DNA of 64,000 nt from a virus, in IMG/VR virus record IMGVR_UViG_3300042371_000472, positions 28,483 through 92,482 of that record; one strand, given 5' to 3'. The notes under the pieces were generated by a model. It was given only the letters and a program-made list of their open reading frames with translations, was not told where the DNA came from and did not search any database. The position numbers and the translations under genes are program-made. This document shows positions 47,649 to 64,000 of the stretch, one piece after another; position 1 is the first letter of the stretch, and each line of letters starts with the position of its first letter.

Positions 47649-47657
47649 GTCGGCTCC

Positions 47658-48080: not shown

Positions 48081-48493
48081 TAGTCACCTTCCTCAAAGTG
48101 TTGTTGTTCGTGCTTCTCTAACTCTTCTTCGCTTGGCATTACCTCACCGCACCACATGCATGACTGTGTTGCTTCTAACTCTTCTAACTCTTTTAATTCC
48201 TTCAACTTTTTTCGTTGATCGGTGAGTTCCACTAACTTACGACGAGACTCCTCTTTCATAGCCTTGACTTTGAGACGCTCGTCTTCGGTGAGATGTGGCT
48301 CAATAGGGTATGGCTCGTTGGAAATGTTTCGTTGATCTTGTTTTATGTTTTCTGAGGATTTCTTATACTTAGGTCTAACCTTTGGACTCCACCGTTCGTA
48401 GTCACCGTTGTAATTATCTTCCGGCTTTGCGTACGGTGATTGTTTCGGGATTTGGGGTTCAGGATAGTTACTCTTATCCTTATAAAAAGTCAT
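48080..48493 (-). CDS. Hypothetical protein with C2H2-like zinc finger
   Basis: CMWC.......LEKHEQQH; start uncertain. Confidence 0.5.
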   Translation of the reverse strand: MTFYKDKSNYPEPQIPKQSPYAKPEDNYNGDYERWSPKVRPKYKKSSENIKQDQRNISNEPYPIEPHLTEDERLKVKAMKEESRRKLVELTDQRKKLKELKELEELEATQSCMWCGEVMPSEEELEKHEQQHFEEGD

Positions 48494-48776
48494 CTTCGTC
48501 ATCCCACTCAAAGTCGTCAAGGCTGATACCTAACTCGTCATCTCCAAGCCATTGCTCATTCCCGTAGTACGACTGTGCATGCGCCCAGTCACGGAAGAAT
48601 CGGGTGTCGCCCTCCTCGGCGTTGTACACCTCAATGATCTCGTAGCAAGCAACATCTACGGCGTCCTTGATCAGCGGGATGAAGTCCTCAGGATTGTCAG
48701 GGTCGGACACCTCAAGGACAACTAAGTCCTTGCTTGGTGTCACCCTGATCTTGAAGACTGGCTTGAAATTGTCCAT
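48480..48776 (-). CDS. Acidic hypothetical protein
   Basis: Operonic, coupled to neighbours. Confidence 0.55.
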   Translation of the reverse strand: MDNFKPVFKIRVTPSKDLVVLEVSDPDNPEDFIPLIKDAVDVACYEIIEVYNAEEGDTRFFRDWAHAQSYYGNEQWLGDDELGISLDDFEWDDEDDFL

Positions 48777-49132
48777 TACTTCACCAGCACTTTCAAGTAA
48801 GACGAGTGCTTCAACTCGGTGACTGCGTCAATGACTTCGGCGTCAACGGCACCAAGTTCAATGGCGCTATCTACGGCGCTTGCCTTGACACTGACCTCGG
48901 TGATCTTCTTGAACAGCGACGGTGAGACCAAGTCCTTGAGGGCAATGGCGTCAAACGACCGACGATCCTGAGCGATGTGCTTCAGCGCATAACCATCCAC
49001 GACGACTTCGTCGCCCTCGTCAATGGCTTGCTTGAGCGCCTTCTCAATTTCCTTCAAACGAATCTCAGCCACCTTGCACTCGTTGTGAAGTTTGATGTAC
49101 TCCGTTACTAGGTTCTTCTCTGTCTTGTTCAT
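48776..49132 (-). CDS. Hypothetical protein (coiled coil + RRSFD motif)
   Basis: GAGG RBS; architecture similar to 28755-29189. Confidence 0.6.
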   Translation of the reverse strand: MNKTEKNLVTEYIKLHNECKVAEIRLKEIEKALKQAIDEGDEVVVDGYALKHIAQDRRSFDAIALKDLVSPSLFKKITEVSVKASAVDSAIELGAVDAEVIDAVTELKHSSYLKVLVK

Positions 49133-49293
49133 GCTGTTACCTCTTCCTCGTATCCGTCAAACCAAACTCCAGCCTCTCTAGTGTTTGGGTCTTTGCAATG
49201 TGCTTGAGCCTGTTCAAGCGTGAGTCCACGCTTGATTGTTTTGTTCTTCTTATCAGATTTCCACATACGAACGATCTTGTATGTACTGCTCAT
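49129..49293 (-). CDS. 54-aa hypothetical protein (MSSTYKIVR...GLTLEQAQAHC...WFDGY)
   Basis: Translated by hand; AGGAG RBS; ATGA overlap. Confidence 0.65.
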   Translation of the reverse strand: MSSTYKIVRMWKSDKKNKTIKRGLTLEQAQAHCKDPNTREAGVWFDGYEEEVTA

Positions 49294-49304
49294 TTGTCCA
49301 CTCC

Positions 49305-49568
49305 TCAGTGATGTGTGATGTCTTGGTTGATGATGTAGTTTGACCGTACTTGGGGGGTGTATGGATGTTTGTACGGGGTCGCATAATGGAAGACTCCATT
49401 GACCTCGGCTCCAATGCCCTCAAGGTATTCCCTGATGACTCGGGCGACTTCGCCCCACACCGAATCAGGTGTGTTCGTGTGGTCAGGATGTTGGTTGGGG
49501 AAATATAACCCCTCAGGAACGGTAAGAGTAATCCCTAAGTTCCCCGTGTAAGCCTGTTGCTCGCTCAT
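49305..49568 (-). CDS. Hypothetical protein
   Basis: Operonic. Confidence 0.55.
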   Translation of the reverse strand: MSEQQAYTGNLGITLTVPEGLYFPNQHPDHTNTPDSVWGEVARVIREYLEGIGAEVNGVFHYATPYKHPYTPQVRSNYIINQDITHH

Positions 49569-49972
49569 AACCCTTTCTCCAATTCTTCCAGTACCGCCCT
49601 CTCATGGCGATCTTGTTCAATGCGTGACTTGATGTACTCAAAGAGATTCTCGGTCAACTCGTTCAACTCTTCGTCGTTTTTTATTTCGTGATCATTGGCA
49701 ATGTCATGGGCAATCTCATCGGCGTACACGATGTCGTAACCCTTGCAGAACAACTCTTCCATTTGGTCTGCGGTGTACTTAGGGAACTCACGGCACAATC
49801 GTTCAATCAATGCGTACTGCGGAATAAGTTCCTTGTGCTTGATGTAGTGAGCAATGTGTTCGCCCTTGATCGCTTGCCAGTACCTGAAAAACTGGCAGGT
49901 GTTCTCAAGGTCAAACAGGTCGGTATCGGGATACAGATACCAGTCGCTGGCTTTGGTTCCTTCGTTGTTCAT
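49565..49972 (-). CDS. Hypothetical protein
   Basis: AGGAG RBS, ATGA overlaps. Confidence 0.6.
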   Translation of the reverse strand: MNNEGTKASDWYLYPDTDLFDLENTCQFFRYWQAIKGEHIAHYIKHKELIPQYALIERLCREFPKYTADQMEELFCKGYDIVYADEIAHDIANDHEIKNDEELNELTENLFEYIKSRIEQDRHERAVLEELEKGL

Positions 49973-50313
49973 ACTGTCTCCTCAATGTTCTCGCCGTAAT
50001 TGGCTTTGCCGTGTTTTGATTCGCTGTAACAATCGGTGTGGTAGTTGCCGTAATGGCACTTGCCATCTTCGTCTTCAAACTCCACGCGAGTTTCGCAGTC
50101 AATGTAAATTGGCTCTTCGCATTCGTCGCATTCAAAGCCAGCACATTCACCGCAAGCGAACCCATCTAAGTGTTCGTCTGTTTCTTCATCCCAACGGGTA
50201 GCAGGGATTCGGTTGATGAACTTTCCGACAGGAGAGCCATCCCTAAAGACAGCGCCAAATGCAGTGGGTTCTCCACAGTAAATACAGGGGTCAAAAGTGG
50301 GACTAACGGTCAT
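49969..50313 (-). CDS. Cys-rich zinc-binding hypothetical protein
   Basis: CIYC, CGEC, CDEC, H.DC; start 50313 after AGGAG. Confidence 0.6.
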   Translation of the reverse strand: MTVSPTFDPCIYCGEPTAFGAVFRDGSPVGKFINRIPATRWDEETDEHLDGFACGECAGFECDECEEPIYIDCETRVEFEDEDGKCHYGNYHTDCYSESKHGKANYGENIEETV

Positions 50314-50618
50314 TGCTTCTCCTCTTCGGTGTGTGGTTTTACTGGCTTGTACCCAATCCATATCCCATGGGGATGGACTACTGGGAGGGTCTCAATGCCC
50401 ACCCATTCCTCGTACTTACTCATGCTGAGGCATCGTGGGCATACTTCGTTGTTATCTATAGCAGTTGTACATTCGTCGCAATTCGGGTCATGGCAGAGTT
50501 CACCTTCGCAGGTGCATGGGGCATGTAGTGCTACGCAGTACAGCGCCCCAGCGAGGTGTCGTAACTTGACAGCCTCGTCAAAAACAGCAATCGGGTCTAT
50601 GCCCGTCTCAATGGTCAT
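50310..50618 (-). CDS. Cys-rich hypothetical protein
   Basis: CTC..C...CDEC...CPRC; AAGGAG RBS. Confidence 0.6.
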   Translation of the reverse strand: MTIETGIDPIAVFDEAVKLRHLAGALYCVALHAPCTCEGELCHDPNCDECTTAIDNNEVCPRCLSMSKYEEWVGIETLPVVHPHGIWIGYKPVKPHTEEEKQ

Positions 50619-50659
50619 GTGGTTCTCCTTGTGGTTTGATGTGTCACTATCGTGTTGTG

Positions 50660-50694
50660 TAGATGGGGTGTCCCACCGTGGGACACCCCATCTA
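50660..50694. repeat. Palindrome copy 2 (core 50669-50685), extended to a 35-bp perfect inverted repeat
   Basis: TAGATGGGG-core-CCCCATCTA. Confidence 0.95.
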
Positions 50695-50698
50695 AGGC

Positions 50699-51187
50699 TT
50701 AGGAGTTAGTTAGAACTTCTTTCTTACGGATAACAACGCCAGCACGGTGGAGCGTGTCGTACACGACCTTCGGCGTGACTGCGAGGTCTTTGGCGATCTT
50801 GACGCCCGACTCACCTGACTGGTAGCGGACAACGATGGAGTTGTTGCGCTCCGTGTTGGCTCGCTTGCGTCGTTCCACACCAACGGTGCGGAGGCTCGTG
50901 TAGACGGTCTCAACGGTCACTCCGAGGGAGCGAGCGATACTCGGGCCTGACTCACCTGAGCGGTAGCGGTTGGCAATCTCGGCACGGCGCATGGTTGTCT
51001 GTGCGCTTGACTTACGACCACGCTTGACGGGGCGAACAAAGATGCCAGCCTCACGAGCATGCTTCAGTAAATACTGGACTTGGTTCTCGCTAATTCCGTA
51101 TTCGGAAGCGACCACCGCCCGCACTTTTCCTGCATTGTGTTCCGCTACAACGGCATTTGCCAGCGCAACTCTCTTGAATAGATTCAT
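50699..51187 (-). CDS. Triple helix-turn-helix DNA-binding protein
   Basis: Three HTH-like repeats (VASEYGIS..V, IARSLGVT..TVY, IAKDLAVT..VVY). Confidence 0.75.
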   Translation of the reverse strand: MNLFKRVALANAVVAEHNAGKVRAVVASEYGISENQVQYLLKHAREAGIFVRPVKRGRKSSAQTTMRRAEIANRYRSGESGPSIARSLGVTVETVYTSLRTVGVERRKRANTERNNSIVVRYQSGESGVKIAKDLAVTPKVVYDTLHRAGVVIRKKEVLTNS

Positions 51188-51272
51188 GGGTTTTCCTTTT
51201 GGTTGGTTATTTGGTTTGGGATTAAATCCTCGCTGACTGGTGGGGGTACCAGCCAGCGAGGACATTGCTTAC

Positions 51273-52541
51273 TCAGAACGGTTCGTCGTCTCCGACGACC
51301 ACCTGAGGAGTTCTGCCAGCCTGCTCTTCAATCAAGAAGGTGCGGATGGACTTGTCATTGATGATGGCTTCCACCTTGGGGCGCTCACGCTCGTTGAAGA
51401 ACGAGGCAAACACTGCCAACCCAATCTCAACGCCAAGAGCGTCAATGTCTTTCTTGGCATCCACCAGCAACTTGGTGCCGACTGGTGTTTGGATTGAGCC
51501 GAGGCGACGAGCCTCACGGAGCGATTCCGCAAGCAAGACCATGCTGGGCGAGCCGAGCAACTTGGTCTCAACATCACGGTCGTATCCCCATGGGATGCGC
51601 TTGGTGAAGCGGTTGGCGAATGCCTCGTTGAGAGGCGAGGTACCACGGTACCCAGCAGGGTTCATGGTGCCGACAATCCAGCAACCCGTGTTCATCTTGG
51701 TCTGAGCCATGAGGTACTCACCCTCGGACTCCACAGCCTTCTGACGGTTGACGAACGAGCGTCGGTCGTCAGCGACTGGGTGGAGCGTTGAGGTGACTCG
51801 CTCGGGCATCATGTTGATCTCGTCAAGGTACAAGATGCATGGCACCTTGCTGGCGAGTTCAATGATGCCGTTGAGGAACACGAGGCGCTCCACGCCATCG
51901 GCACCGATGTGTGCGACCGACTGACCGAACAAGTCGTAGTCGGTGACACCAGCGGAACCGCTGAGGGTGAACACTGGGAGGGGCTTGGGGAAGCCCAGTT
52001 CCTTGGACACGAGGCAGGCGAGCACCTGAACGAACATGGTCTTGCCAGCCTGTGTGTCGCCCTCAAAGAGGACATTGGCTGAGTAACCATTGTTGTCACG
52101 GGTGCGCCAGTAGTGGAGCAGAAGGTCGGTGTCCTTGATTGAACCGAACAACTTGCGTGAGACATACTTCTTGAGCAAGTCCCATGATGGGCGGTACGGG
52201 TCAAGACGGACATCCATCGGGTCAACGATGGGCTTCTGTGCGACGACTACTGGAGCCGACGCTGGTGCGTTGACTGCTGGCGCAACTGCTGAGGTCACGA
52301 TGGTGCCATCCGAGAGCAACTTCGGGAGGAGGTAGACAACCTCACCGCTGGTGCGACGGACTTGGATGCAACGAGCGAACTCGGTGCCATCGGGGTCAAC
52401 TTCATTGGTGACGATGACGACTGTTTCGCCCACGGGGATTTCAACCCGAGTGCTGTCGGCTAATCGTGCGCTGACTGTCTTGGACTTTTTGGCAGAGATT
52501 TCAAACTCTTTGCCAACTGTGAGGTCGCTGATGCGAGCCAT
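51273..52541 (-). CDS. MoxR/CobS-type AAA+ ATPase
   Basis: GDTQAGKT, LYLDEIN, GTMNP.GY.GT.PLN.AF.NRF; start 52541 after AAGGAG. Confidence 0.88.
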   Translation of the reverse strand: MARISDLTVGKEFEISAKKSKTVSARLADSTRVEIPVGETVVIVTNEVDPDGTEFARCIQVRRTSGEVVYLLPKLLSDGTIVTSAVAPAVNAPASAPVVVAQKPIVDPMDVRLDPYRPSWDLLKKYVSRKLFGSIKDTDLLLHYWRTRDNNGYSANVLFEGDTQAGKTMFVQVLACLVSKELGFPKPLPVFTLSGSAGVTDYDLFGQSVAHIGADGVERLVFLNGIIELASKVPCILYLDEINMMPERVTSTLHPVADDRRSFVNRQKAVESEGEYLMAQTKMNTGCWIVGTMNPAGYRGTSPLNEAFANRFTKRIPWGYDRDVETKLLGSPSMVLLAESLREARRLGSIQTPVGTKLLVDAKKDIDALGVEIGLAVFASFFNERERPKVEAIINDKSIRTFLIEEQAGRTPQVVVGDDEPF

Positions 52542-52592
52542 GATGGTTCTCCTTGTGGTTTGGTGATTTGGTGGTTTAGGTTTTATTACTGC

Positions 52593-52609
52593 TGTCCCAC
52601 GGTGGGACA
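52593..52609. repeat. Palindrome copy 3 (central G)
   Basis: TGTCCCACGGTGGGACA between the VWA and MoxR genes. Confidence 0.95.
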
Positions 52610-52687
52610 CTTACTGCGATCTCCCCACCCCATGTACTACTGAGGTGGGGGAGAGACGGTATCTCTCAATTATTTGGATAACAACTC

Positions 52688-54850
52688 CTACCCAAGGAAG
52701 TTCAGAAGAAAGTTTCTGACAACTTCAGGTAGTTGTTCTATTGTGTCAATGTTGACAACTTGGTCGCAACCAACCCTGAGGAGGTACGCAGTGTCAACCT
52801 CAGCGCCAAAGGCGACTCCCAAGAACACACGACCATCACTGGCGTAGTCGTGGCACTTGACATCGCCATTCCAAACACCATCCGTGAGGATGATGACGAG
52901 GTGGTACTTCTGCTCCTCACGGTGTGAATCCAACACATTGAATGCACTTATGGGGTTAGTCCCACCACCTGGCTTTAAGGCGACTGGCTCAACATGGCGA
53001 TCAATCGCTCGCCACAACTCTTGCGAGTCTGAGTCAAAGGTGACCACGGTGCAGTCAATGCCGACTTGGTCGCAGGCTTCTTTGACGGCGAATCCGCTCA
53101 CGCCCAACTCACGACCAACACTGGACATTGAACCGCTCGTATCTAACATAAGAGTTACGGCGATGTCTAAGCCAGTGTTACCCGTTGAGGTAAGTGTGCG
53201 ACGGTACTCGTTGTCACCAGCGTTGCGAGTGCGGTATCGGAAGGCGTTGATGACACCCTCACGATGACCCTCTTCCCAAATTGGCAGGGCTGACGATGAC
53301 GCCGAGTCAAATGCCGTGCCGAGTCGGTAAGCAATGTCCCGTGCTCGGTTGGCGCCCTCGTCATCCATTGCCGTACCTGACAACTCAGGAGCGAGTTGCT
53401 TGATGTCGCCTCGGTTGAAGTCCTCGTTGATGGCTCGGACTGTGTCCTCAATGTCGGAGTCATTGTGAATCTCGTTCTCAATTTCATCCAACAATTCTTT
53501 GAGGTCAGAGGTCGTGTCATCCTCGGATGTGCCAGCGTCATCGGCGTCTTGCTGTGGCTTCTCCGTGCCACCGTCACCGCCAGCACCACCACCCTCGCCA
53601 TCATCGTTGGCATCACCATCGTTGTTGCACTTACCATCATCGTCGGCGTTGCTTGAACTCTCGTTCACACTGTCATTGGTGTTGTCACCGTCAGCAGATG
53701 AGCCTTCGCCATCCTGTGCGTCGTCGTCACCCTCGTGTGGGTCGCCCGATCCGCTTCCCTCTGACTCGTCGTCACCCTTGGCGTCATCCTTAGGTTCAGT
53801 CTTATCCTTAGACTTACCCTTGGTGATCTCTTTGCCATCCTCATCCTGATCGTCAGCCGAATCCGCCGAGTCCTGCACGGGGCGCTTCCCATTACGGGGA
53901 TGACCAGTGTGGTCATCAAACTGTGGAGGAACGATGTCCAGCGCCTTAAGCAACTGATGGAACTTGATGACAGCGACGACCTTGTCTTCAACCGATGTTG
54001 CTCGGCAATACTCCCGAACAACTTCCTCGGCTGAGACAGTGGCGTGATCGCCAAAGTAAGTGTTGAAGTTATTCCGTGACTTACGGCGTAGTTCTATCGG
54101 TAAGAACCGACGATTGATAACTAACAAATACTGGCAGGCGATTCCTTTCTCGGATGACTTGTCAATGCCACCGTTGTCGGTGCTCCAGTTCGCCTCATTG
54201 AGAATCCAGTTGACGCTCAAGTAGGTCAGGTAGCGAGCGAGGTACGGTGACTGAGCGACCAGTGCAGTTTCCATGCGCTGATCTTCTAGTATGTTCCATG
54301 CACGGCGCACACTTGTGGCTGTCTCTTGGGACAGAGTGGGGTACTTCTTGACCCACTCCTCGTTGCCGTAGCCACAGTCTGCCATCATCCAGTTGATGTG
54401 CTGGCTGAACAGAATGTGTCCTAGTTCGTGATACTGGAGCGCCTTGACCTCGCTGACCAATCGCTTGAGCGACTCAATGTCATTGATGTACACCGTGTTG
54501 CCAGCCTCATCGGCAGTGACTGGCATCGGATACTTAACGACGATCTTTGTGCCGTCTGTGTATGCCACTGGTGATTTACTGCCCACAGGCGCTTCGCCCA
54601 TGTGAATCGGTACTGAGACACCGAACGATGCATTGACCGCACGACACAGGCTCACGAGGTTGCGTATGATCGCAATTCCCTGTGATTCCTTGGTGCGATT
54701 CCTTTGGTTCCTAGAATCGGAACGGAGCGAGCCACGGGCTTTCTCCATCTCTACGAGAGCGCTCTTGCTCTGATCACGAGCGATGCGACGGCGTTCTGTT
54801 TGGAGGCGACGCTTCGCCTCGGGGGACAGGTTGATGATTGGCTTGCTCAT
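52688..54850 (-). CDS. CobT-like VWA-domain protein with HExxH metallopeptidase-like domain and acidic linker
   Basis: HELGH, N.LED.R.E, D/E/G-rich linker, MIDAS DTSGSM, GGT.P, ILTDG. Confidence 0.88.
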   Translation of the reverse strand: MSKPIINLSPEAKRRLQTERRRIARDQSKSALVEMEKARGSLRSDSRNQRNRTKESQGIAIIRNLVSLCRAVNASFGVSVPIHMGEAPVGSKSPVAYTDGTKIVVKYPMPVTADEAGNTVYINDIESLKRLVSEVKALQYHELGHILFSQHINWMMADCGYGNEEWVKKYPTLSQETATSVRRAWNILEDQRMETALVAQSPYLARYLTYLSVNWILNEANWSTDNGGIDKSSEKGIACQYLLVINRRFLPIELRRKSRNNFNTYFGDHATVSAEEVVREYCRATSVEDKVVAVIKFHQLLKALDIVPPQFDDHTGHPRNGKRPVQDSADSADDQDEDGKEITKGKSKDKTEPKDDAKGDDESEGSGSGDPHEGDDDAQDGEGSSADGDNTNDSVNESSSNADDDGKCNNDGDANDDGEGGGAGGDGGTEKPQQDADDAGTSEDDTTSDLKELLDEIENEIHNDSDIEDTVRAINEDFNRGDIKQLAPELSGTAMDDEGANRARDIAYRLGTAFDSASSSALPIWEEGHREGVINAFRYRTRNAGDNEYRRTLTSTGNTGLDIAVTLMLDTSGSMSSVGRELGVSGFAVKEACDQVGIDCTVVTFDSDSQELWRAIDRHVEPVALKPGGGTNPISAFNVLDSHREEQKYHLVIILTDGVWNGDVKCHDYASDGRVFLGVAFGAEVDTAYLLRVGCDQVVNIDTIEQLPEVVRNFLLNFLG

Positions 54851-55080
54851 TTGTATCTCCATGTTCCGTTTGGACTAACGATGACGGGAGCGTCACCATA
54901 CTGAATGGGTAGGTCACAGTTGTTGAGACCATCAAGTGCGATGTCCCAACCAATGGCATCCCATGTGCCGTTGCCATGGAAGGCAACCTTGCATGTGGGC
55001 TGGTCACTATCTCGGCTCGCAAGAGCCAGCACAAGGCTGACTCCTGCGCCGATCAGAACTAACTTGCTGAATGGATTCAT
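54847..55080 (-). CDS. Small exported/membrane protein
   Basis: N-terminal hydrophobic helix. Confidence 0.5.
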   Translation of the reverse strand: MNPFSKLVLIGAGVSLVLALASRDSDQPTCKVAFHGNGTWDAIGWDIALDGLNNCDLPIQYGDAPVIVSPNGTWRYK

Positions 55081-55376
55081 CACTTTCCCTTCTGTGCACT
55101 TGGCACGATGTCGCAGGAGCAGACGACTTCATCTTGCTCGCCTGCGTCGCCGTTCTCATCAACATCAACGATCTCGCCGTACTCGTTGATGACATCGGTG
55201 GTGTAACCCGAGTGCCAGTAACCGCCCTCGTTGAGGAAGTCGTACTTGTCATCAAGGCTGGTGGTGTCCCAGTCGGCTGGGACTAACTCTTCTTCAATGT
55301 AGAAGTAATCCCACTTCTGACCGATGCCCGAGTAGTACTGCAACTCGGTCAGTATCTCAAAACAAATCTTGCTCAT
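55080..55376 (-). CDS. Acidic hypothetical protein
   Basis: GGAGG RBS before ATG 55376. Confidence 0.55.
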   Translation of the reverse strand: MSKICFEILTELQYYSGIGQKWDYFYIEEELVPADWDTTSLDDKYDFLNEGGYWHSGYTTDVINEYGEIVDVDENGDAGEQDEVVCSCDIVPSAQKGK

Positions 55377-55591
55377 CAGTATTCCCTCCATGTTTGTGTG
55401 GGTTCATCCCACTGTGCGTTAATTGGATTGATGTCAGCATCGGCGCTGACCACCTTGATGGTGTCAGTCCACCAACAGAGTTCTTCCGCTTCCTCGTATG
55501 CCTTACGAACAAGAGCCGTGGCTTCTTCTTCGCTTTCAGCCAGCACCTCGTAGGTGCTGACCTTGGTCAGTTGATAGAACTTCTTACTCAT
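55376..55591 (-). CDS. Hypothetical protein
   Basis: AGGAGG RBS; EVLAESEEEA motif. Confidence 0.6.
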   Translation of the reverse strand: MSKKFYQLTKVSTYEVLAESEEEATALVRKAYEEAEELCWWTDTIKVVSADADINPINAQWDEPTQTWREY

Positions 55592-55805
55592 TTGTAATGC
55601 CTCCTATTACATAAAAGTCTTCGTCGTTGTCGGGGTTGGTCAGTGCGATGATCTCTTCGGCGCTTTCCACATAGAAGAAGATTGAATCGTCAAAGCGAAC
55701 ATCAACGGTGTCCTCGTCGTACTTGCCGATGGCGAATGATCGCCACTGCGGTTCGTCGTCAGCGAGTTCGTCTTTCCACTTGATCTGAAATTGATATACC
55801 TGCAT
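55584..55805 (-). CDS. Acidic hypothetical protein
   Basis: CGCCTGAGGAGGC leader. Confidence 0.6.
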   Translation of the reverse strand: MQVYQFQIKWKDELADDEPQWRSFAIGKYDEDTVDVRFDDSIFFYVESAEEIIALTNPDNDEDFYVIGGITNE

Positions 55806-55815
55806 GGTTGCCTCC

Positions 55816-56160
55816 TCAGGCGTCGTCGTTGTCGGATTCGTGTTTGCTGATGTACCTTGTCACGGCTGTTATACCTTGGACAATGATTGCTTGTTCATGT
55901 GCCTCCTTGAGAACGCTGAGGCATTCAATCAAACTGGTCAGTTCAGCAATCTTGGTCTCAAGTGCGAGCAGGCGACCTGCCTTGCTGACAAGGATTTCTG
56001 TGCCCCGACCGATGTTGTCGTTCAGGCGCTCGGTTGCCAACTTGCAGAGCGTACGGGTCTCGTACTCGTACTCGTCAAAAGCACTCTTGAGGTGTCGCTC
56101 GGCTTGAATCAAGCGATACTCAAACTCAAACTCAATCGGGTTTGTAACGGATGTTGCCAT
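55816..56160 (-). CDS. Helical hypothetical protein
   Basis: Start 56160 after CGCCTAAGGAGGC. Confidence 0.6.
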   Translation of the reverse strand: MATSVTNPIEFEFEYRLIQAERHLKSAFDEYEYETRTLCKLATERLNDNIGRGTEILVSKAGRLLALETKIAELTSLIECLSVLKEAHEQAIIVQGITAVTRYISKHESDNDDA

Positions 56161-56197
56161 TTTGTTTGCCTCCTTAGGCGTTGTTTTTAGATAAGAG

Positions 56198-56356
56198 TTA
56201 CTGTCCCACCGTGGGACAGTCGTGGACAAGTTCGCACTCGCAGTCGTAGTACGGGAACTTCAGACCGCATGTATCGCACACGGTCACATTGGGGTAGTAG
56301 GTGAAGCCCACGGGCTTGACGCCCGTGGACTCACAGCAGTACCAGTCGTCGCTCAT
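56198..56356 (-). CDS. 52-aa Cys-rich peptide ending inside the palindrome
   Basis: Translated by hand: MSDDWYCC...CDTC...CECELVHDCPTVGQ*. Confidence 0.5.
   Translation of the reverse strand: MSDDWYCCESTGVKPVGFTYYPNVTVCDTCGLKFPYYDCECELVHDCPTVGQ
56200..56220. repeat. Palindrome copy 4 (core 56202-56218)
   Basis: AC-core-GT. Confidence 0.95.
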
Positions 56357-56358
56357 GA

Positions 56359-56592
56359 TCAGTCCCAACTAATGAATGCGTTGCTGTCGGGGTGGGTGTA
56401 GAACGGGGGCGTCGCCACCAGTGTGGTGTCCTCGGCGCTGAAGCCGTTGATGGCATCAATCGCTTCGTCAATCTGAGCGACGACCTCTGCGTCTCCAGCA
56501 TCGCCTGACCACCACTCTCGGTAGTCCTCCAATGCGGTGACAATGATCGTGCTGTGTTCCTCAATGATCTGTTGGGCGGTGGGCTTGCTCAT
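56359..56592 (-). CDS. Hypothetical protein
   Basis: AAGGAG RBS, ATGA overlap. Confidence 0.6.
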   Translation of the reverse strand: MSKPTAQQIIEEHSTIIVTALEDYREWWSGDAGDAEVVAQIDEAIDAINGFSAEDTTLVATPPFYTHPDSNAFISWD

Positions 56593-56771
56593 GCTGTTTC
56601 TCCTTTGAGTTCAACTGCTTTGCCAATTCGTTCAGCAATTTCAAATATGTAATCTTCATTTTCTTCCAACTCTGCTTCATCGTTGGCGTCAAAATTGCTG
56701 GTATCAACAACTAAACATTCGCTGATATCAATGATGGTTCCTGTACCAAAATGTACGATTAACTTGCTCAT
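56589..56771 (-). CDS. Small acidic protein, paralog of 57019-57204
   Basis: IVH.GTGTII...EC.VVD shared. Confidence 0.65.
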   Translation of the reverse strand: MSKLIVHFGTGTIIDISECLVVDTSNFDANDEAELEENEDYIFEIAERIGKAVELKGETA

Positions 56772-57022
56772 GCTGGTTCTCCTTCGGATTGTTCGGGTTC
56801 AATTACTTCAATGCCACCAGTGGTGGTCAGGTCTTCGGTGATGTACGAGATGACGGCGTGGTCTTCTCCAAACCAACCCTCATCGTCTCGCACCTTGACA
56901 TCAATGCTGATCGGGAAGTCTTCAAAGGCTTCCTGAATGTCCACGGTCTCGTAGTCGTCGGGCACTTGCACCTCAGCGACAACGCTGAACTCGTACCACT
57001 GTGTGATGGTTACTGTCTTCAT
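56768..57022 (-). CDS. Acidic hypothetical protein
   Basis: AAGGAG RBS, ATGA overlaps. Confidence 0.6.
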   Translation of the reverse strand: MKTVTITQWYEFSVVAEVQVPDDYETVDIQEAFEDFPISIDVKVRDDEGWFGEDHAVISYITEDLTTTGGIEVIEPEQSEGEPA

Positions 57023-57204
57023 GATTGCTCTCCTTGTGGTTGTAGTTGTTGTCCAACACGCTGGGCGACCTCAATGATCTCGTCTTCCCAACCCGCGTCA
57101 AAAATCTCAGTGTCGTGGTCGTCTAGTTTGTCTAGGTCAACGACGACACACTCGTCGGCATTGATGATTGTTCCTGTTCCGATGTGAACGATGTACTTGG
57201 TCAT
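57019..57204 (-). CDS. Small acidic protein, paralog of 56589-56771
   Basis: IVH.GTGTII...EC.VVD shared. Confidence 0.65.
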   Translation of the reverse strand: MTKYIVHIGTGTIINADECVVVDLDKLDDHDTEIFDAGWEDEIIEVAQRVGQQLQPQGEQS

Positions 57205-57566
57205 ACCGATTCCTTTCTGCTTCGTGCGTATGCCCGTCGTGCTTGTTCCCGTAGTTCGTCTTCACGGCGGTTTGTCCATGTGATGGTCTCAAAGCCATAG
57301 ATGGTGACTTCGTCAGCATCAGCGAGCCAGTGCAATGGGCGCTCCACGCTGTATGTAATCAGGGCAATGTCAGTCCAATGCCAGTACGCCATCCCATCTT
57401 CAGAGATGGTGCGGTTGACTCCACGGAACTGGTAGGCGACGAGGTCGCCAGTTTTATTCGCCACAAACTCGGCGCTCTTGAACTGAACCCATGCTGGGTT
57501 GTCAAGATCAGGGTCGGTGACTAGCGCCCACCCTTGTTGGTTGATGATTGGGTTGATGGTCTTCAT
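57201..57566 (-). CDS. Hypothetical protein
   Basis: GGAGG RBS, ATGA overlap. Confidence 0.6.
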   Translation of the reverse strand: MKTINPIINQQGWALVTDPDLDNPAWVQFKSAEFVANKTGDLVAYQFRGVNRTISEDGMAYWHWTDIALITYSVERPLHWLADADEVTIYGFETITWTNRREDELREQARRAYARSRKESV

Positions 57567-57814
57567 TTTGATTCCTCCGTATGGGTAATGATCTTGCGGT
57601 CGTTTGCTTCGCCCCCGAGAATGGCGAACTCACGGATGAGTCGCTGGGCTTCTCTATTTGCTCCCCACTGGGTGTTGGTGTGGACATTCCAAACGAGGTT
57701 CTTGAGGTCGTCTGCGAATGGATTCGGCTCAACTCGGTAGATGCGAGTGAACCAGCGCAGAGCGCCGAGTTTGAATATCTCAATCTCGTAGGTTTCGGTG
57801 GTTTTTGTGGACAT
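57563..57814 (-). CDS. Hypothetical protein
   Basis: Start 57814 after AAGGAG. Confidence 0.6.
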   Translation of the reverse strand: MSTKTTETYEIEIFKLGALRWFTRIYRVEPNPFADDLKNLVWNVHTNTQWGANREAQRLIREFAILGGEANDRKIITHTEESK

Positions 57815-57873
57815 GATGTTTCTCCTTGTTTGTTGTTGTGTAGGTCTAACGATTGGGTGTGATGTAGTTGTGC

Positions 57874-57890
57874 TGTCCCACCGTGGGACA
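57874..57890. repeat. Palindrome copy 5
   Basis: TGTCCCACCGTGGGACA. Confidence 0.95.
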
Positions 57891-57929
57891 CTGGGGCTGG
57901 GCGCCACCACAACGCCCAACCCCAACCGA

Positions 57930-58829
57930 TCAGCCAAGACCAGCGAGGCAGTCCGAGCCGATGCCGATGGCTCGGCTGTGCTCATCCTTGAGTGTGCGAC
58001 CGCACACACCGCAGACCTTGAAGTGGACACCGAACGCACGAGCCAGTTCGGGCAGGTCGTACCTGACTAGGTCGGCAAGGACAGCATCCTGCTTGGCCTG
58101 TGGGAGGTTCTGCACTGAGTTGAAGTGCGAGCCACCGATGACCTTGGCAACGCCTGAGCGACTGACTCGGTAGTAAGCGAACCCGTCAATCTCGTCAGGG
58201 TCGGGCACTGCGAGACCGACATTGCCAGCCTTGGCATTGCCCTTGCCAACGGCTGTCAGGACTCGCTGGATGCCCGTGTCAATGCGGTCGTCAGTCTTCC
58301 CGTCACTGTGGGCACACGACTCGCACAGGGCATGCCAGCCAGCCTTGAGGTAAGCGATGTACTGGTCACGCTTACCGCACACCGAGCACTTGCTGGCGAA
58401 CCGAGCCTCAATGACCTTCTCGGCATCGGCAGGGACTGCTGGGTACTTGCTGACCCAGTCGGGGGCAACCGTGGGCAAGCCCCATGTGGCTCGTTCAGCC
58501 TTGGCTGAGTCAAGCAGGCGCTTGAGCACATCAATCGCTGTGGAGATTTCTGACTTGGCGATGGACTCTGCGCCCTCGGCAAATCCGATTACCTCAACCG
58601 TGCTGAGGACAATCTTCTCGCTGTTGACGAACTTTGTAACGACTGCCTTATCTAACTCAGTGAGAGTCTTAGATAAGAGTGTGTCAGCCTTGAGAGTCTG
58701 AGCATCGTCGCCCGACCAGTTGCTGGCTGGGTCTTGAGTGTCAACGACGACTTCGTTGAGTTGCTTCCACAGTGAGAGCAAGAACTGGACTTGCTTGGGC
58801 GTGGCTTCAGTTGAATAGGTGGTGGACAT
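57930..58829 (-). CDS. DUF6011-like zinc-binding protein
   Basis: C-terminal CGVCGRTL.D..S...GIG.DC; internal ARF...C..CG...C..C; N-terminal AT.KQ..F motif. Confidence 0.75.
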   Translation of the reverse strand: MSTTYSTEATPKQVQFLLSLWKQLNEVVVDTQDPASNWSGDDAQTLKADTLLSKTLTELDKAVVTKFVNSEKIVLSTVEVIGFAEGAESIAKSEISTAIDVLKRLLDSAKAERATWGLPTVAPDWVSKYPAVPADAEKVIEARFASKCSVCGKRDQYIAYLKAGWHALCESCAHSDGKTDDRIDTGIQRVLTAVGKGNAKAGNVGLAVPDPDEIDGFAYYRVSRSGVAKVIGGSHFNSVQNLPQAKQDAVLADLVRYDLPELARAFGVHFKVCGVCGRTLKDEHSRAIGIGSDCLAGLG

Positions 58830-58874
58830 GGTGGTTCTCCTTATGGTGGTTGGTGTTCACTATCTTGCGTTTGT

Positions 58875-58903
58875 GGGGAGTGTCCCACCGTGGGACACTC
58901 CCC
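58875..58903. repeat. Palindrome copy 6 (core 58881-58897)
   Basis: GGGGAG-core-CTCCCC. Confidence 0.95.
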
Positions 58904-58911
58904 TAAGTTGG

Positions 58912-60507
58912 TCAGCGGTACGAGTCCAACAATTCGTTGGCTGTTGAACCGCCGACCAAGGTCTCGGCTGAGTCGTCAAGGATGGCGCCGACGACGCCTG
59001 CCTTGCCCTCAAGCATGCCCCACAGGCGCTCGTCAACCGACGAGTCGCCATCAAGGGCACTGACCAAGATGTTGTTGGTGCACGGGCGTGTCTGCCCGTA
59101 CCGATGGAGCCGAGCCTCGGCTTGTTTAAGGGCACTCGGTGTCCACGGAAGTTCAACCGTGATCATCGTCGCACCCGATGTCATCGTGAGTCCCTCGGAC
59201 ACCGCTTGGATGTTGCCGATCAACACACGGGCAGTCCCAGCCTGCCACTTGTCAACGGCATCCTGTTTCTGCTTGCCCGAGTCGTCACCAGTGACGGAGA
59301 CGATTGTGCGAGCATCCACACCCTCAGCGATGAGGGACTCACGGAGTTTCCAAGCGACCTCCTTGTGGGCGGTCACGAGGAACACTTGCTCGCCCTCATC
59401 CAAGAGGCTGACCGTGGCATCCACTGCCGTGGACACCTTGCCGAGACCAGCGATCTGTCGGAGTTGACCGAGCAGAACGATGGCGTGGGCACGGTCGTTG
59501 AGCGAGAACTTGTCGTCGTCTCGCTTCTCTTGGAGGAACTCCTCAAGGTCACGGACTGCTCGCTTGTAGTCCGTCACAGCCTTGCCAGTAAGAGCGACGG
59601 GCGTGATGTACCGAGAGAACTCGGGGAGGATGATGACATCCTCACGCTTGCGCCTAATCATCACCCACTGGGTGAGTTGCTCGTTCAACTCTTTGACATT
59701 GGTGGCGCCATTGAATGTCGTACCAAAGCCGTTGAACACGGGGTCGCAGTATCGGGTCTTGAAGCGACTCGCACCGCCGAACCGAGGCAGGTGACCGAGG
59801 ATGTTGAGCAGTGGAATCAACTCCACTGGTCGGGACAGCAACGGCGTACCTGAGAGTAGGAGCACGGGCGCCTCGGGGTTGAGGTGCTTGGCAATGGTGA
59901 CCATCGCCTTGCTACGCCCCGAGTCCTCGGACTTGGAGCGGTGAGCCTCATCCTGCACCAAGCCAGCCCAAGGGTGCTTGGCGAGGATGTTGACGGGCTT
60001 GAGAGTCCGTTGCTCACGGGTCTTGCCCTGATTCGCTCGTGCCCACGAGTTGACCTCAGCGACTGGAGCCAGCGCCCAATACTGGATGACGCTGTCGGGG
60101 CAGATCACGATGTCCGTGTCGGGGACACTCGTGGGCTTCTGACCCGAGATGCGAGACACCGAGCGGTGAGGCAGGGCAGTCTTGATTGACCGCTCCCAGT
60201 TGATCACCAATGCTGGTGGACACACAATGAGGGCTGGGTAGGCGTTGAGTTCATCAAGTGCCAGCAGGGCGCTGTAGGTCTTGCCTACGCCCATGTCGTC
60301 AGCGATCAAGAGACGAGTGTGACCAGCCTTGACGGCTTCAGCCACAACGAGTTGGTGAGGCATCGGGGTGATGGCGAGCGTGTGCTCTACGATGCCCTCA
60401 GGGGCGATGCGACCCGAGAACGGGCGCAAGCCCGTGGACACCTTGGCGACAGCCTCAGCGAGGATGTCGGTAGCGCTTCGGGCGTTGGTACGGTCACTTA
60501 ATGCCAT
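58912..60507 (-). CDS. SNF2-family (SF2) helicase
   Basis: LIADDMGVGKT, DEAH, LSGTP, EGL.M, W.P....QAEARLHRYGQ. Confidence 0.92.
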   Translation of the reverse strand: MALSDRTNARSATDILAEAVAKVSTGLRPFSGRIAPEGIVEHTLAITPMPHQLVVAEAVKAGHTRLLIADDMGVGKTYSALLALDELNAYPALIVCPPALVINWERSIKTALPHRSVSRISGQKPTSVPDTDIVICPDSVIQYWALAPVAEVNSWARANQGKTREQRTLKPVNILAKHPWAGLVQDEAHRSKSEDSGRSKAMVTIAKHLNPEAPVLLLSGTPLLSRPVELIPLLNILGHLPRFGGASRFKTRYCDPVFNGFGTTFNGATNVKELNEQLTQWVMIRRKREDVIILPEFSRYITPVALTGKAVTDYKRAVRDLEEFLQEKRDDDKFSLNDRAHAIVLLGQLRQIAGLGKVSTAVDATVSLLDEGEQVFLVTAHKEVAWKLRESLIAEGVDARTIVSVTGDDSGKQKQDAVDKWQAGTARVLIGNIQAVSEGLTMTSGATMITVELPWTPSALKQAEARLHRYGQTRPCTNNILVSALDGDSSVDERLWGMLEGKAGVVGAILDDSAETLVGGSTANELLDSYR

Positions 60508-60558
60508 GGTGGCTCCTTAGTTGGTGGTGGTTTACTTATCTGTCACTATCGTCATTGT

Positions 60559-60589
60559 AGGGGAGTGTCCCACCGTGGGACACTCCCCT
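60559..60589. repeat. Palindrome copy 7 (core 60566-60582)
   Basis: AGGGGAG-core-CTCCCCT. Confidence 0.95.
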
Positions 60590-60595
60590 TACTGG

Positions 60596-61081
60596 TCACC
60601 ACGACGCTCGGTAGAAAAAGTCCCAGTATTCGGTGACGGGGTCATTGAGCAAATTGTCAATGACCTCGGCGGTGTACCGCAACGATTCCAAGTACCACTC
60701 GTCGTACTCCGTGCTCCCAAAGAAGAAGCCCGAGGTCGTCGGGAGGTGCTCGTTGGCGTACGAGTCACCGTGGATTGCCAAGCCCTTGGGCACGGTGTAA
60801 CACAGTTGGTGGAGCGCCACCAACTTCTCACGGCTGACATGAAAGCCATTGCCGTCATCCACGCCATCGTTGCATTCCTGCACGAACCAGTTGTGGATGG
60901 CATTGGCTTTGCGCCAGTACGCCACGGTCACATCAATCGTGATGTACGGGTGGTCGGGGTCAGCGATGCTGGAAGCGTTCACGAGGTCAATGATCTCGGC
61001 GTACTGGAGGCGTTCAGCGTCGGTGCTCCACTGACTACCACTGATGCAGTGCTTGGCTGATAGGTATTGGTCAAGTCCCAT
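60596..61081 (-). CDS. Conserved phage protein of unknown function
   Basis: MGLDQYL...YWRKANAIHNWF...LPT..GFFFG...YDEWY...Y.ASW pattern. Confidence 0.75.
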   Translation of the reverse strand: MGLDQYLSAKHCISGSQWSTDAERLQYAEIIDLVNASSIADPDHPYITIDVTVAYWRKANAIHNWFVQECNDGVDDGNGFHVSREKLVALHQLCYTVPKGLAIHGDSYANEHLPTTSGFFFGSTEYDEWYLESLRYTAEVIDNLLNDPVTEYWDFFYRASW

Positions 61082-61261
61082 GTCGGGTCTCCTTTGGTTG
61101 GTGGTTGGTTTGGTTGGTGGTTGGTTGAATCCGCAATGACACCCTCCCCACTACTATGGGTTGCTCGTGGGGACTTCCCACTTTCCCTCGTTGCTGACGC
61201 TTGTCCACAACGGGGGGAGGGTGTTTCGGGAGTTTGTTGTCCCGAAATCTTGAGATCGGTT

Positions 61262-61286
61262 GGGGTGTCCCACCGTGGGACACCCC
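61262..61286. repeat. Palindrome copy 8 (core 61266-61282)
   Basis: GGGG-core-CCCC. Confidence 0.95.
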
Positions 61287-61295
61287 GAGGCTCGG

Positions 61296-61634
61296 TCACC
61301 CGAATACGAGGTCACCGAGCACGATGTGCTGGAGCACGACATCACTGGCGTCTGAGTCAAAGTCGTCGCTGTCCACCGCCGACTGCACGACTTGCCAGCC
61401 AGCCTTCTTCTCCTTGATGATCTCATTGACGACTGCCTTGGCACGGCTCGGACTGAATGTCACCGACTTGGTGATGATCTTGCCATCGTCGGTCGTCTCC
61501 CCCGTTTCCATCTTGCAGACAATTTGTTCTTCATCGGTGATGTCCAGTTTGCGATACCACTCGTAGGTCTCGGCTCCCGAGTAGATCAGCGTGTCCATGA
61601 CTTCTTGGGCGTTTGCTGTCCATACTGTTTTCAT
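61296..61634 (-). CDS. Hypothetical protein
   Basis: GCCTGAGGAGGC leader; D.D...D..LQ...LG.LVFG terminus. Confidence 0.65.
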   Translation of the reverse strand: MKTVWTANAQEVMDTLIYSGAETYEWYRKLDITDEEQIVCKMETGETTDDGKIITKSVTFSPSRAKAVVNEIIKEKKAGWQVVQSAVDSDDFDSDASDVVLQHIVLGDLVFG

Positions 61635-61643
61635 GTTGCCTCC

Positions 61644-61916
61644 TCAGGCTTGATGTTGTTGTAGTTGCTTCTTCAGCCATTTGCTGGCTTCTTCGGGGTC
61701 AAGGGAATCTAGATACCGATCAACTGGGTGATCACCGTTGTCGTAATTCCAGTGGGGGTAATCTTCCCGTAGTCGCTCTATTTCCCGATCAACCTCCGTC
61801 TGAGCGACGGGGGCGTACAGGCTTCGTGCAACACCGTTGACGATCTCGTACTCACCCGAGGCAAGGCATGCCTCGTTGCGTTGCTCGTTGTACAACTTCT
61901 CAAGTTTCTTGCTCAT
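61644..61916 (-). CDS. Hypothetical protein
   Basis: CGCCTGAGGAGGC leader. Confidence 0.6.
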   Translation of the reverse strand: MSKKLEKLYNEQRNEACLASGEYEIVNGVARSLYAPVAQTEVDREIERLREDYPHWNYDNGDHPVDRYLDSLDPEEASKWLKKQLQQHQA

Positions 61917-61957
61917 GTTGCCTCCTCAGGCGTCGTTGTTCACTATCGGGATATTTG

Positions 61958-61999
61958 TGGGGCGAGTGTCCCACCGTGGGACACTCACCCCGAGGTTGA
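61958..61999. repeat. Palindrome copy 9 (core 61967-61983); 42-bp direct repeat with copy 10
   Basis: TGGGGCGAG-core-CTCACCCCGAGGTTGA. Confidence 0.95.
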
Positions 62000-62003
62000 G
62001 CGA

Positions 62004-62282
62004 TCAGTAGATGCCGTCAGGCTCATCGTCGCTGATGAACTCGTGGGCGAACAGTGGGTCAAAGCCACACTCTTCAAGAAACGAGCGGTAGTTGTACACT
62101 CGGTCGCTGTCGCTGAGACCTGCATACGGCACGAGTGCCGAGTGGATTTGAACGGCGATCTGAGCCAACTCCACGGTCGCCTTGGTCGCTACGCCACCCG
62201 TGAGGCGGTTCATGGTGAAGTGGTCACGGAAGGCGCTGGCGACTCGGTCGCATGCTTGCTCGGGTGTTCGGTTGATGTCCAT
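62004..62282 (-). CDS. Hypothetical protein
   Basis: Start 62282 after CGCCTAGGAGGC. Confidence 0.6.
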   Translation of the reverse strand: MDINRTPEQACDRVASAFRDHFTMNRLTGGVATKATVELAQIAVQIHSALVPYAGLSDSDRVYNYRSFLEECGFDPLFAHEFISDDEPDGIY

Positions 62283-62322
62283 GTTGCCTCCTAGGCGTTG
62301 GTGGTGGTTGATGGTTGGTGGA

Positions 62323-62364
62323 TGGGGCGAGTGTCCCACCGTGGGACACTCACCCCGAGGTTGA
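62323..62364. repeat. Palindrome copy 10 (core 62332-62348)
   Basis: Identical 42 bp to copy 9. Confidence 0.95.
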
Positions 62365-63132
62365 TCAGGCGCTGAGGGCGTCGGCGCTTGCATTGAACAG
62401 GTTGCCCCGATCTTGCTGATCAAGTGGCACGGTGTTGGCGCTGACACGGAGCAGTGCCACGGCGAGCGTGGCGAACACTTCGTGGTCATCCTGAAGCGAT
62501 GCGATCAGGTTGGCGGTGACATCGGCAATGGCTTCGGCGCCATGCTCAGTCAACTGTGCGACGATCTCGTCAACGGTCAAGGCGACCACTGACTCGTCGG
62601 TGCTGTCGGCGTCGCTCTCGGCGCTCTCGGTCTCGGCTTCAGCCTTGGCAGACTTCTCAGCCTTTTTGGCTTCGCCCTTTTCGGCTTTGTTGATCTTGGC
62701 GAGCACTTCAAGGGCGTCGGCGCTCTCATCCTTGATGAGGATGGCGCCAGCCTTGGCGTAGCGAGCGTAGGTGGACTTGCCGATCTTGGCGCCAGCAGTC
62801 TTACTTGCCAACTCAAGGGCACGGAACGAGACACCAGCCTCGTTGGCGTTGAACACGGCGATGCATGCCGAGCGGAGCGCCAACTTGGCGTCGGCAACGG
62901 CGCTCTCGGACTTGATGGCTTCGGCAACAGCCAAGGCGGTCAGGTCGGCAGGGGTCGCCTTGACTTCAACGACTTCGGCAACTACTGGCGCTTCAACAGC
63001 GACAGGCTTGGCGGTGTGGGTACGGGCTTTTTTGGTGGTGGTGGTTGACACTTTGGTCTCCTTGGTTGTGGTGGTGGCTGGTTTGCCAGCGAGCAGATTG
63101 GCGAGTCCTACTGGGCGGTCGGTGGTCTTCAT
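62365..63132 (-). CDS. Ala/Lys-rich protein with possible HTH
   Basis: GVSFRALE.......IGKSTYARY is HTH-like; start 63132 after CGCCTGAGGAGGC; strongly biased codons. Confidence 0.65.
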   Translation of the reverse strand: MKTTDRPVGLANLLAGKPATTTTKETKVSTTTTKKARTHTAKPVAVEAPVVAEVVEVKATPADLTALAVAEAIKSESAVADAKLALRSACIAVFNANEAGVSFRALELASKTAGAKIGKSTYARYAKAGAILIKDESADALEVLAKINKAEKGEAKKAEKSAKAEAETESAESDADSTDESVVALTVDEIVAQLTEHGAEAIADVTANLIASLQDDHEVFATLAVALLRVSANTVPLDQQDRGNLFNASADALSA

Positions 63133-63164
63133 GGTGTGCCTCCTCAGGCGTTGGTGGTGGTTGA

Positions 63165-63193
63165 ACTGTCCCACCGTGGGACAGTCGTGGACA
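63165..63193. repeat. Palindrome copy 11 (core 63167-63183); 29 bp identical to copy 4
   Basis: ACTGTCCCACCGTGGGACAGTCGTGGACA. Confidence 0.95.
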
Positions 63194-63606
63194 GGTGCGA
63201 TTGAACGCTACGCCCGAGGCGCCTGCCCGAATTGCGATGATCATATATGAGTCCAAGATCGGTGGACTCCCCTCCCTTGCTTCACCCGAGGGGATTGGAT
63301 GCACTGCAATCTTTTATGAACGGCTCGCCAACCTTGGTGATTGCTAGTCACCGATACATCGTTGTTTGTATTTCGGGTATCCATCGGACTTCCAGCAGGC
63401 ACAGGTGGCGGTGCATTCGCTGGTCACTTGATCTTGGTGAAGTTGCTCGTCGTATCGGCTCGGCGCTTGCCCTCATACTCACCAGCGTCGCTGGGGCGCA
63501 TCTCGGTCATCCCCGTTGGTGCAGACATCTGCTGGGGGAAACCATCACGGCGAGTGCCTGTGATGCTTGAGTGTTTGGGGTCACGCTCTGCTGACCAGTC
63601 ACTACC

Positions 63607-63623
63607 TGTCCCATGGTGGGACA
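63607..63623. repeat. Palindrome copy 12 (variant)
   Basis: TGTCCCA-TGG-TGGGACA; arms conserved, centre changed. Confidence 0.85.
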
Positions 63624-64000
63624 CCGAGACTTACGGCTTGGCACGCTGGCTTGTCAGGCTGGCGTGGTGGGCACTGCTCGTTCTACATGACTGACCGTTG
63701 ATACTGGAGAAGCCCGAAATTGTTTGGCGCTTCAGATCAGAGGTGTTGTCTCATGGTTTTCTGAGTTAGTAGGTGGTTCAGACTTTCAGGTTGCTTTCGC
63801 ATTTCGTCTACCGCCGAACTGGATTGGCGTTCTCACTGGGTGAGGCAGGACTACCTGTCGGTCTGAGCACTGTTGGCTATTTGTCAAGGGACACTGTGGG
63901 AGCAGTGAGATGTCTCAGTTGCTCGGTTTGTACTACTTGGTCTTACAAAACCCAGTAGTGGGTGCTGTCAAATGCCCAGCGTGTGGGCACTTGACAGCAC

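Follow-up and report, generated by a model that had tools for sequence, protein, structure and literature searches.

Stem-loops and dispersed repeats between phage genes have been described in several systems. In T4-type phages, the elements named PeSLs are composites of terminator and promoter that mediate indels, gene replacements and mini-circles (Arbiol et al. 2010, PMC2839356; Comeau et al. 2014, PMC4122927). Cluster K mycobacteriophages carry the start-associated repeats SAS and ESAS, with inverted repeats, and the consensus varies between phages (Pope et al. 2011, PMC3203893). Streptomyces phage phiC31 and mycobacteriophage L5 are reported to contain many dispersed repressor sites or stoperators (PMC4557955). 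Here, these systems are compared with a family of twelve palindromic hairpins in a 64,000-nucleotide window of viral DNA, which makes up the last 64 kb of the 92,482-bp IMG/VR virus record IMGVR_UViG_3300042371_000472 (98% complete). The original prediction for this window described pairs of exact direct repeats around single genes, and saw in them the geometry of excisable cassettes. The reading preferred here, to which we give a probability of about 0.6 from sequence comparison, is that the paired repeats represent copies of a stem-loop with a regulatory role, which marks module boundaries in the early gene cluster, and that these repeats are exploited by general recombination.

The hairpins resemble PeSLs in being intergenic stem-loops between an upstream stop codon and a downstream Shine-Dalgarno (SD) sequence, PeSL stems often consisting of a G-run and a C-run with G-T pairs. 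They are likewise concentrated among orphan open reading frames (ORFans) in a hyperplastic region, some are joined to a promoter-like sequence whose −35 overlaps the stem, the repeats flank single genes, and gene indels and replacements distinguish close relatives. Unlike PeSLs, they occur in an actinophage rather than a T4-type phage, and have a strictly conserved, perfect 17-bp palindrome with a lineage-specific tip. The promoter-like box is present at only 4–5 of the 12 sites, and most breakpoints lie in a separate SD/ATG repeat and not in the stem-loop.

The comparison with SAS/ESAS also concerns actinophages, and in both cases a conserved asymmetric repeat containing the ribosome-binding site (RBS) stands just upstream of a subset of non-structural gene starts, with inverted repeats upstream of some. 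In both, the elements are kept at orthologous genes, and the consensus of the inverted repeats varies at certain positions between related phages. However, ESAS is formed from two imperfect 17-bp repeats with a 4–13 bp spacer, beside the start, whereas the element described here is a single perfect 8-1-8 palindrome on a long GC stem near the preceding stop, ~50 nt away from the start. There is no sequence relationship between the two systems; the start-associated repeat of the present phage, ACGCCTGAGGAGGCAAC, is unrelated to the published 13-mer (PMC3203893).

In phiC31 (NC_001978), 15 copies of CC-TACTCACGTGAGTA-GG were found, 14 intergenic and one inside the repressor gene. Around half lie 8–27 nt past a stop codon, some have stem extensions, and two are 39 nt apart (34783/34822). 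These are many identical intergenic palindromes with the same anatomy as the hairpins of the window. In contrast, both phiC31 and L5 are temperate, with a known repressor bound to the sites, and the L5 stoperators are asymmetric; the sites described here are confined to the early region, and no match to the phiC31 repressor was found in this phage. Judged by analogy with these systems, the architecture would be one of PeSL-like and SAS/ESAS-like regulatory cassettes.

The hairpin family and its placement

Judged by the portal protein, Streptomyces phage BRock is the closest phage in culture, with 53% identity. The sequencing runs containing the phage DNA, among which no RNA run was listed, are lake-water metagenomes; the phage is an uncultured freshwater actinophage. 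It appears to be lytic. A DNA search against a cultured-phage collection gave no match, and no repeat family comparable to the hairpins was found in the first 45 kb of BRock. Relatives were recovered by searching with the protein sequence of the SNF2-family helicase of the early cluster, which identified seven viral and four metagenomic contigs belonging to the lineage of this phage. All of these keep the element at orthologous positions, and within IMG/VR it is restricted to this clade.

Three repeat pairs had been reported in the window, and each was found again at the positions in Table 1: a 42-nt exact pair around the ORFan F2 (hairpins HP3 and HP4), a 30-nt exact pair around the SNF2 gene (HP6 and HP7), and a 29-nt pair shared by HP2 and HP9. 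All three contain the palindrome TGTCCCAC-N-GTGGGACA, with a 17-bp core, and are therefore the closest-alike members of one 12-copy family rather than independent duplications. A scan allowing up to three mismatches returned these 12 copies in the window and one unrelated three-mismatch match, where 0.35 would be expected by chance; the remaining 28 kb of the genome (the first 28 kb of the record) held no copy. All 12 fall within 17.8 kb of an early-gene region rich in ORFans. Eleven are in the minus-strand early and DNA-metabolism cluster (window 47.4–64 kb, transcribed leftward), and the twelfth lies 1.5 kb outside it, between two plus-strand genes. The same arrangement recurs in the independent assemblies of relatives, and so is not an assembly artefact.

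Placement was read from a sense-strand gene map with RBS-supported starts. Most hairpins lie 13–20 nt past a stop codon and ~35–60 nt ahead of the next start, and together they split the cluster into modules of one to seven genes, within which the genes overlap (ATGA) and no hairpin is found. The contigs of three relatives (L005, L006 and L007) stop ~50 nt past the SNF2 stop codon, inside HP7, and that of another, G002, starts near HP1; metagenome assembly appears to be interrupted by the long palindromic repeats.

In the element, TGTCCC-N5-GGGACA forms the tip of a stem that is rich in GC, 11–16 bp long and closed in most copies by a 3-nt loop. For the extended copies, the calculated folding energy is −27 to −33 kcal/mol, with z scores of about −3 to −6; the RNA fold of HP3, for instance, has a 15-bp stem, a 3-nt loop and a free energy of −32.8 kcal/mol. 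Two copies, HP8 and HP10, are bare cores accompanied by a separate GC hairpin just upstream, indicating that structure and core sequence are separable. Covariation was assessed on nine contigs, which supply 69 distinct copies. None of these varies in the six outer pairs of the core, and the closing pair is A-U in 35 copies, G-C in 34 and unpaired in none. The stem extension also covaries, with a score of 0.258 versus 0.130 for shuffled alignments (reached in 0 of 500) and 0.07–0.12 for slid ones. Where otherwise Watson-Crick stems have a single interior mismatch, it is G·T on the sense strand in six cases and A·C in none, which speaks for the sense transcript as the strand that folds. A real fold is supported both by the covariation and by the G·U pairs on the sense strand; no Rfam family matches the hairpin.

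Table 1. Hairpins and other features of the window, in window coordinates
Feature	Coordinates	Strand	Remarks
HP1, variant core	63607–63623	−	Head of cluster; GGTAGTGA (63599–63606) abuts
HP2, 29-nt repeat copy	63165–63193 (core 63167–63183)	−	Ahead of F1
HP3, 42-nt repeat copy	62323–62364 (core 62332–62348)	−	16 nt past F1 stop
HP4, second 42-nt repeat copy	61958–61999 (core 61967–61983)	−	20 nt past F2 stop; followed by GATAGTGA (61940–61947)
HP5	61262–61286 (core 61266–61282)	−	
HP6, 30-nt repeat copy	60560–60589 (core 60566–60582)	−	Upstream of SNF2; GATAGTGA at 60543–60550
HP7, 30-nt repeat copy	58875–58904 (core 58881–58897)	−	Downstream of SNF2; GATAGTGA at 58857–58864
HP8, bare core	57874–57890	−	Separate GC hairpin just upstream
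HP9, 29-nt repeat copy	56200–56228 (core 56202–56218)	−	Ahead of F13
HP10, bare core	52593–52609	−	Separate GC hairpin just upstream
HP11, 16-bp stem	50660–50694 (core 50669–50685)	−	GATAGTGA at 50644–50651
HP12, bare core	45863–45879	.	Between two plus-strand genes, 8 nt past stop; abuts next RBS
Extended SD box	61917–61933	−	ACGCCTGAGGAGGCAAC then ATG; further copies at 55807, 56165, 61635 and 63135
F1, first cluster gene	62365–63132	−	Conserved in both clades
F2, 92-aa ORFan (92 codons)	62004–62282	−	Inside 42-nt pair; no family match
F3, 90-aa ORFan	61644–61916	−	Among relatives, found in the window genome alone
F6, SNF2-family helicase	58912–60507	−	Core gene; hairpin on each side in every relative
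RecA homologue	33828–34841	+	Sole recombinase found; E-value 7e-55

The hairpin tip and its switches

The TGTCCC/GGGACA arms are invariant across the relatives, whereas the central 5 nt are uniform within each genome and different between genomes. Three types of tip are seen: AC-N-GT in the window genome, G001, G005 and G003/L216; GA-N-TC in G002 and L215, with four half-hybrid sites in G002; and GT-W-AC in G004, L217 and L218. At five cleanly alignable sites, G001 and G002 are 98% identical over the 40 nt upstream and agree at 12 of 12 arm positions, while identity in the central 5 nt is 8%. The pair G003 and G004 displays a second, independent switch. From these alignments, the tip type is judged to have switched at least twice, from AC to GA in clade A and from AC to GT in clade B. 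Ahead of their cores, HP2 and HP9 have a partial third half-site, TGTCCAC GAC (63165–63200 and 56200–56235, minus strand), which remains of the AC type in G002 though the G002 core is of the GA type.

Uniformity of the tip within each genome, and its change between genomes, might suggest selfish miniature mobile elements that spread or homogenise within a genome, their position after stop codons being merely where insertion is tolerated; a lone hairpin, present or absent between the same two genes in G002 and G005, would fit such behaviour. The copies, however, are orthologous and stable in position across ~30% protein divergence, and neither target-site duplications nor a transposase were found. 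Site-specific stem extensions are kept while only the 5-nt tip changes, which makes copy-paste of whole elements unlikely. We regard mobility of this kind as highly improbable. Concerted rewriting of the tip may have occurred through short-patch templated conversion among copies.

A role of the central pentamer as a restriction or methylation site was considered and rejected: the pentamers occur at their expected frequency genome-wide, neither depleted nor enriched, and restriction avoidance is therefore not the cause. Among 86 proteins common to five genomes, substitutions that track tip type were found in tail and baseplate proteins only. As tip type follows the tail/baseplate module, it may be tied to host switching. 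No GA- or GT-type contig with the left operon turned up in a search for them, and the putative reader of the tip may be encoded in the ~25 kb that the GA and GT contigs lack, or by the host. Tentatively, the tip (the closing base pair and the 3-nt loop) could be an address label for a lineage-specific factor, encoded by phage or host, and rewritten in concert at ~12 sites when lineages split. If this were true, tip rewriting would split phages with ~95–98% identity in other respects into regulatory types incompatible with one another.

The tail and baseplate genes (window 8248–21643, plus strand) have a phylogeny at odds with that of the remaining genome. In this module, G002 is 56–67% identical, compared with 95–100% elsewhere, and the distant G003 is equally close there. 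Grouping by tail module agrees with hairpin tip type, a possible link to host range.

Gene gain and loss in the early cluster

Gene order in the cluster varies among the relatives, with whole-gene gains, losses and replacements, and one relocation. In the synteny map, F15, F22 and F47 are present or absent depending on the relative. G002 has an extra hairpin-bounded F8–F13 module between F5 and SNF2, those genes being missing from their window-genome positions, and both flanking hairpins share the prefix TGACCAGT. In G005, the same slot holds F8 with a hairpin on each side, F8 lying elsewhere in the window genome and G001. The proposal that genes are inserted, excised or duplicated by recombination at these elements is borne out in part: gene content and order do vary, and the F8 module shifts between hairpin-bounded slots, but the hairpins are not the usual breakpoints.

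This became apparent when breakpoints were mapped for six gene-sized indels between the window genome and its nearest relative, G001. In five, both ends lie within 20 nt of start codons, with a junction overlap of 3–28 nt (10–28 nt in four) in the SD/ATG box; the F3 indel, for example, has an extended SD box at each end and an overlap of 19 nt. The sixth ends at a 48-nt leader repeat that starts at a hairpin 3′ arm, and none of the six has both ends in hairpins. Breakpoints near hairpins include those of the F8/F13 module, a 126-nt indel from the foot of HP5, and the loss of HP4 in G005, where the GATAGTGA leader is kept. The mix of breakpoint types in clade B is as in clade A.

The two repeat pairs thought to bracket excisable genes fared differently. 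SNF2, inside the 30-nt pair, is present and unmoved in every relative, contrary to the idea of an excisable bracket. The 42-nt pair around F2 is common to G001 and G002 and is therefore old; F2 has indeed been replaced in G005, with breakpoints at start codons and not at the hairpins. This pair has the form that integration or unequal crossing-over at a hairpin would produce, and is not evidence for an active excision system.

Besides the hairpins, two other intergenic parts are reused. The −10-like box GATAGTGA has six sense-strand copies per genome, versus ~1.4 expected, and four boxes sit 14–19 nt past a hairpin core across three clade A genomes (15–19 nt in the window genome). The extended SD box stands ahead of five genes, its five copies comparing with 0.11 expected, and a sixth, 1 nt shorter, lies near 62288. 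The leaders between hairpin and RBS (window 47400–64000, minus strand) consist of C/A-rich CCAA/CCAC runs in which G and T are very rare, above all in clade B, and could serve as unstructured translation leaders. A low-complexity stretch near 61109 draws unrelated contigs at a depth of ~390.

A mechanism can be proposed in which the hairpin forms in the early transcript, where it would act as an attenuator, a terminator or a 3′-end stabiliser. At 4–5 sites, the 3′ arm GGGACA would double as a −35-like element for the −10-like GATAGTGA, giving terminator-promoter composites, and a sequence-specific factor would read the invariant arms and the uniform tip, thereby addressing the whole cluster. 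Since the hairpins, the GATAGTGA leaders and the extended SD/ATG box are reused before many genes, direct repeats of 15–48 nt flank nearly every gene. These repeats could then serve general recombination, with the phage RecA as a candidate, or template switching, through which genes would be gained, lost, duplicated and relocated; the SD/ATG box would account for most events and the hairpins for a few.

Whether the repeats guide recombination at all has to be weighed against a purely regulatory role, under which indels would arise by illegitimate recombination and selection for intact gene boundaries, and identical flanks would reflect descent or structural constraint. The position of most breakpoints outside the hairpins and the invariance of SNF2 are in keeping with this, as is the loss of identity between the members of the 30-nt pair in GA-type phages. 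Nor are adjacent copies significantly more alike in the window genome: the tendency of neighbours to share a flank variant, part of the original prediction, proved weak, applying to 2 of 11 adjacent pairs (order-permutation p=0.16) with no effect in clade B. What a purely regulatory role leaves unexplained is the 3–48 nt of junction overlap in repeated leader or SD sequence (10–48 nt in five of six events), which is the real argument for repeat guidance. The G002 F8 module between two hairpins with the common TGACCAGT-stem prefix, F33 in G005 with a GATAGTGA leader on each side, and the precedent of the PeSLs (PMC2839356) point the same way, and we consider a purely regulatory role unlikely.

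A second alternative invokes a dedicated site- or hairpin-specific system, integron-like or IS200/REP-RAYT-like, that excises and inserts genes at the hairpins. Palindromic sites separate single genes in integrons as they do here, one hairpin-bounded module occupies different slots, and the concerted identity of tips in any one genome is reminiscent of REP families, whose dispersed hairpins are alike throughout a genome and tied to their own RAYT. Read-level evidence, taken from assembled Logan contigs and unitigs of four runs, is in part compatible with such a system. In the probable source run, the assembly graph breaks at the 42-nt repeat, and a 383-nt cassette unitig has a depth of 28.2, compared with 21.4 and 22.7 for its flanks and 49.9 for the 42-nt repeat unitig, a pattern that could arise if a minority of genomes had extra copies or circles. 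This excess, however, amounts to ~2 standard deviations for a unitig of 383 nt, and the three other runs do not show it. The contigs of the four runs yielded one joint, from 61281 to 63164, resting on no more than 20 nt at one side, and two pieces with unrelated inserts; these are unreliable, and no dependable deletion or circle junction appeared among the contigs.

The enzymes such a system would use are also missing. As originally predicted, RecA is encoded and no integrase is visible, the latter holding for the 98%-complete genome: the tyrosine recombinase family PF00589 is absent, as are serine recombinases, resolvases and the Y1 HUH transposase PF01797, the positive controls having worked. 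In contrast to integrons and REP elements, there is thus no IntI-type integrase or Y1 transposase, and the palindromes are perfect, their extensions pairing by Watson-Crick or G·U, and have neither the extrahelical bases of attC nor R/L boxes. The missing enzymes and a breakpoint pattern lying mostly elsewhere make a dedicated excision system unlikely, and we attach very little credence to it.

Several observations count against a regulatory stem-loop whose repeats are exploited by general recombination. A U-tail follows none of the 12 hairpins, the tails being C/A-rich, and a terminator scan calls none of them. The GATAGTGA box accompanies only 4–5 of the 12 elements and is absent in clade B, and a consensus scan found sigma-70-like promoters not to be enriched (10 versus 10.5 expected). 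The G·U asymmetry amounts to only ~3–5 independent events. With respect to a factor reading the tip, neither F20 nor F1 tracks tip type: the double helix-turn-helix (HTH) protein F20 is 97–98% identical across tip types, and the putative recognition helix of F1 is identical in an AC-type and a GT-type phage. Finally, viable indels must end between genes, and intergenic breakpoints alone are no proof of repeat guidance.

Genes of the cluster and implications of the hairpins

The small genes of the cluster are nearly all ORFans, and most hairpin neighbours have no Pfam or PHROG family; the products with names are SNF2, a DUF6011 protein, an AAA_5 ATPase and F20. The F1 product, 35–97% identical to the window copy across clades, has a centre that resembles an HTH (GVSFRALE...KIGKSTYARYAKAG), as judged by eye only, with Ala/Lys/Glu-rich disordered parts on either side. 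It received no family assignment; Foldseek gave no match from a poor AlphaFold model (pLDDT 59), and Atlas returned unnamed viral clusters only. Homologues of F2 were found in known relatives only. The 720-aa protein F18 (52688–54850, minus strand) has a long acidic, Asp/Gly/Ser-rich middle and is 99% conserved within clade A; no Pfam family covers it, and its weak PHROG match is to a group with no assigned function. Paralogues have been duplicated within the cluster, with two F10 copies in the window genome (56589–57204, minus strand), and G001 has a second F9 copy adjoining F2 (70800–71130).

These comparisons extend the idea of regulatory cassettes driving gene shuffling from T4-type phages to an uncultured lineage of freshwater actinophages. 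They also make separable two roles that are usually conflated, that of the stem-loop as a module boundary and that of the start-associated SD repeat as the commonest breakpoint. The outstanding feature is how sharply the hairpin tip has changed, twice and throughout the genome, between near-identical phages. This change of 5 nt at every hairpin constitutes a natural experiment on dispersed cis sites co-evolving with a putative reader, and offers a handle for finding it.

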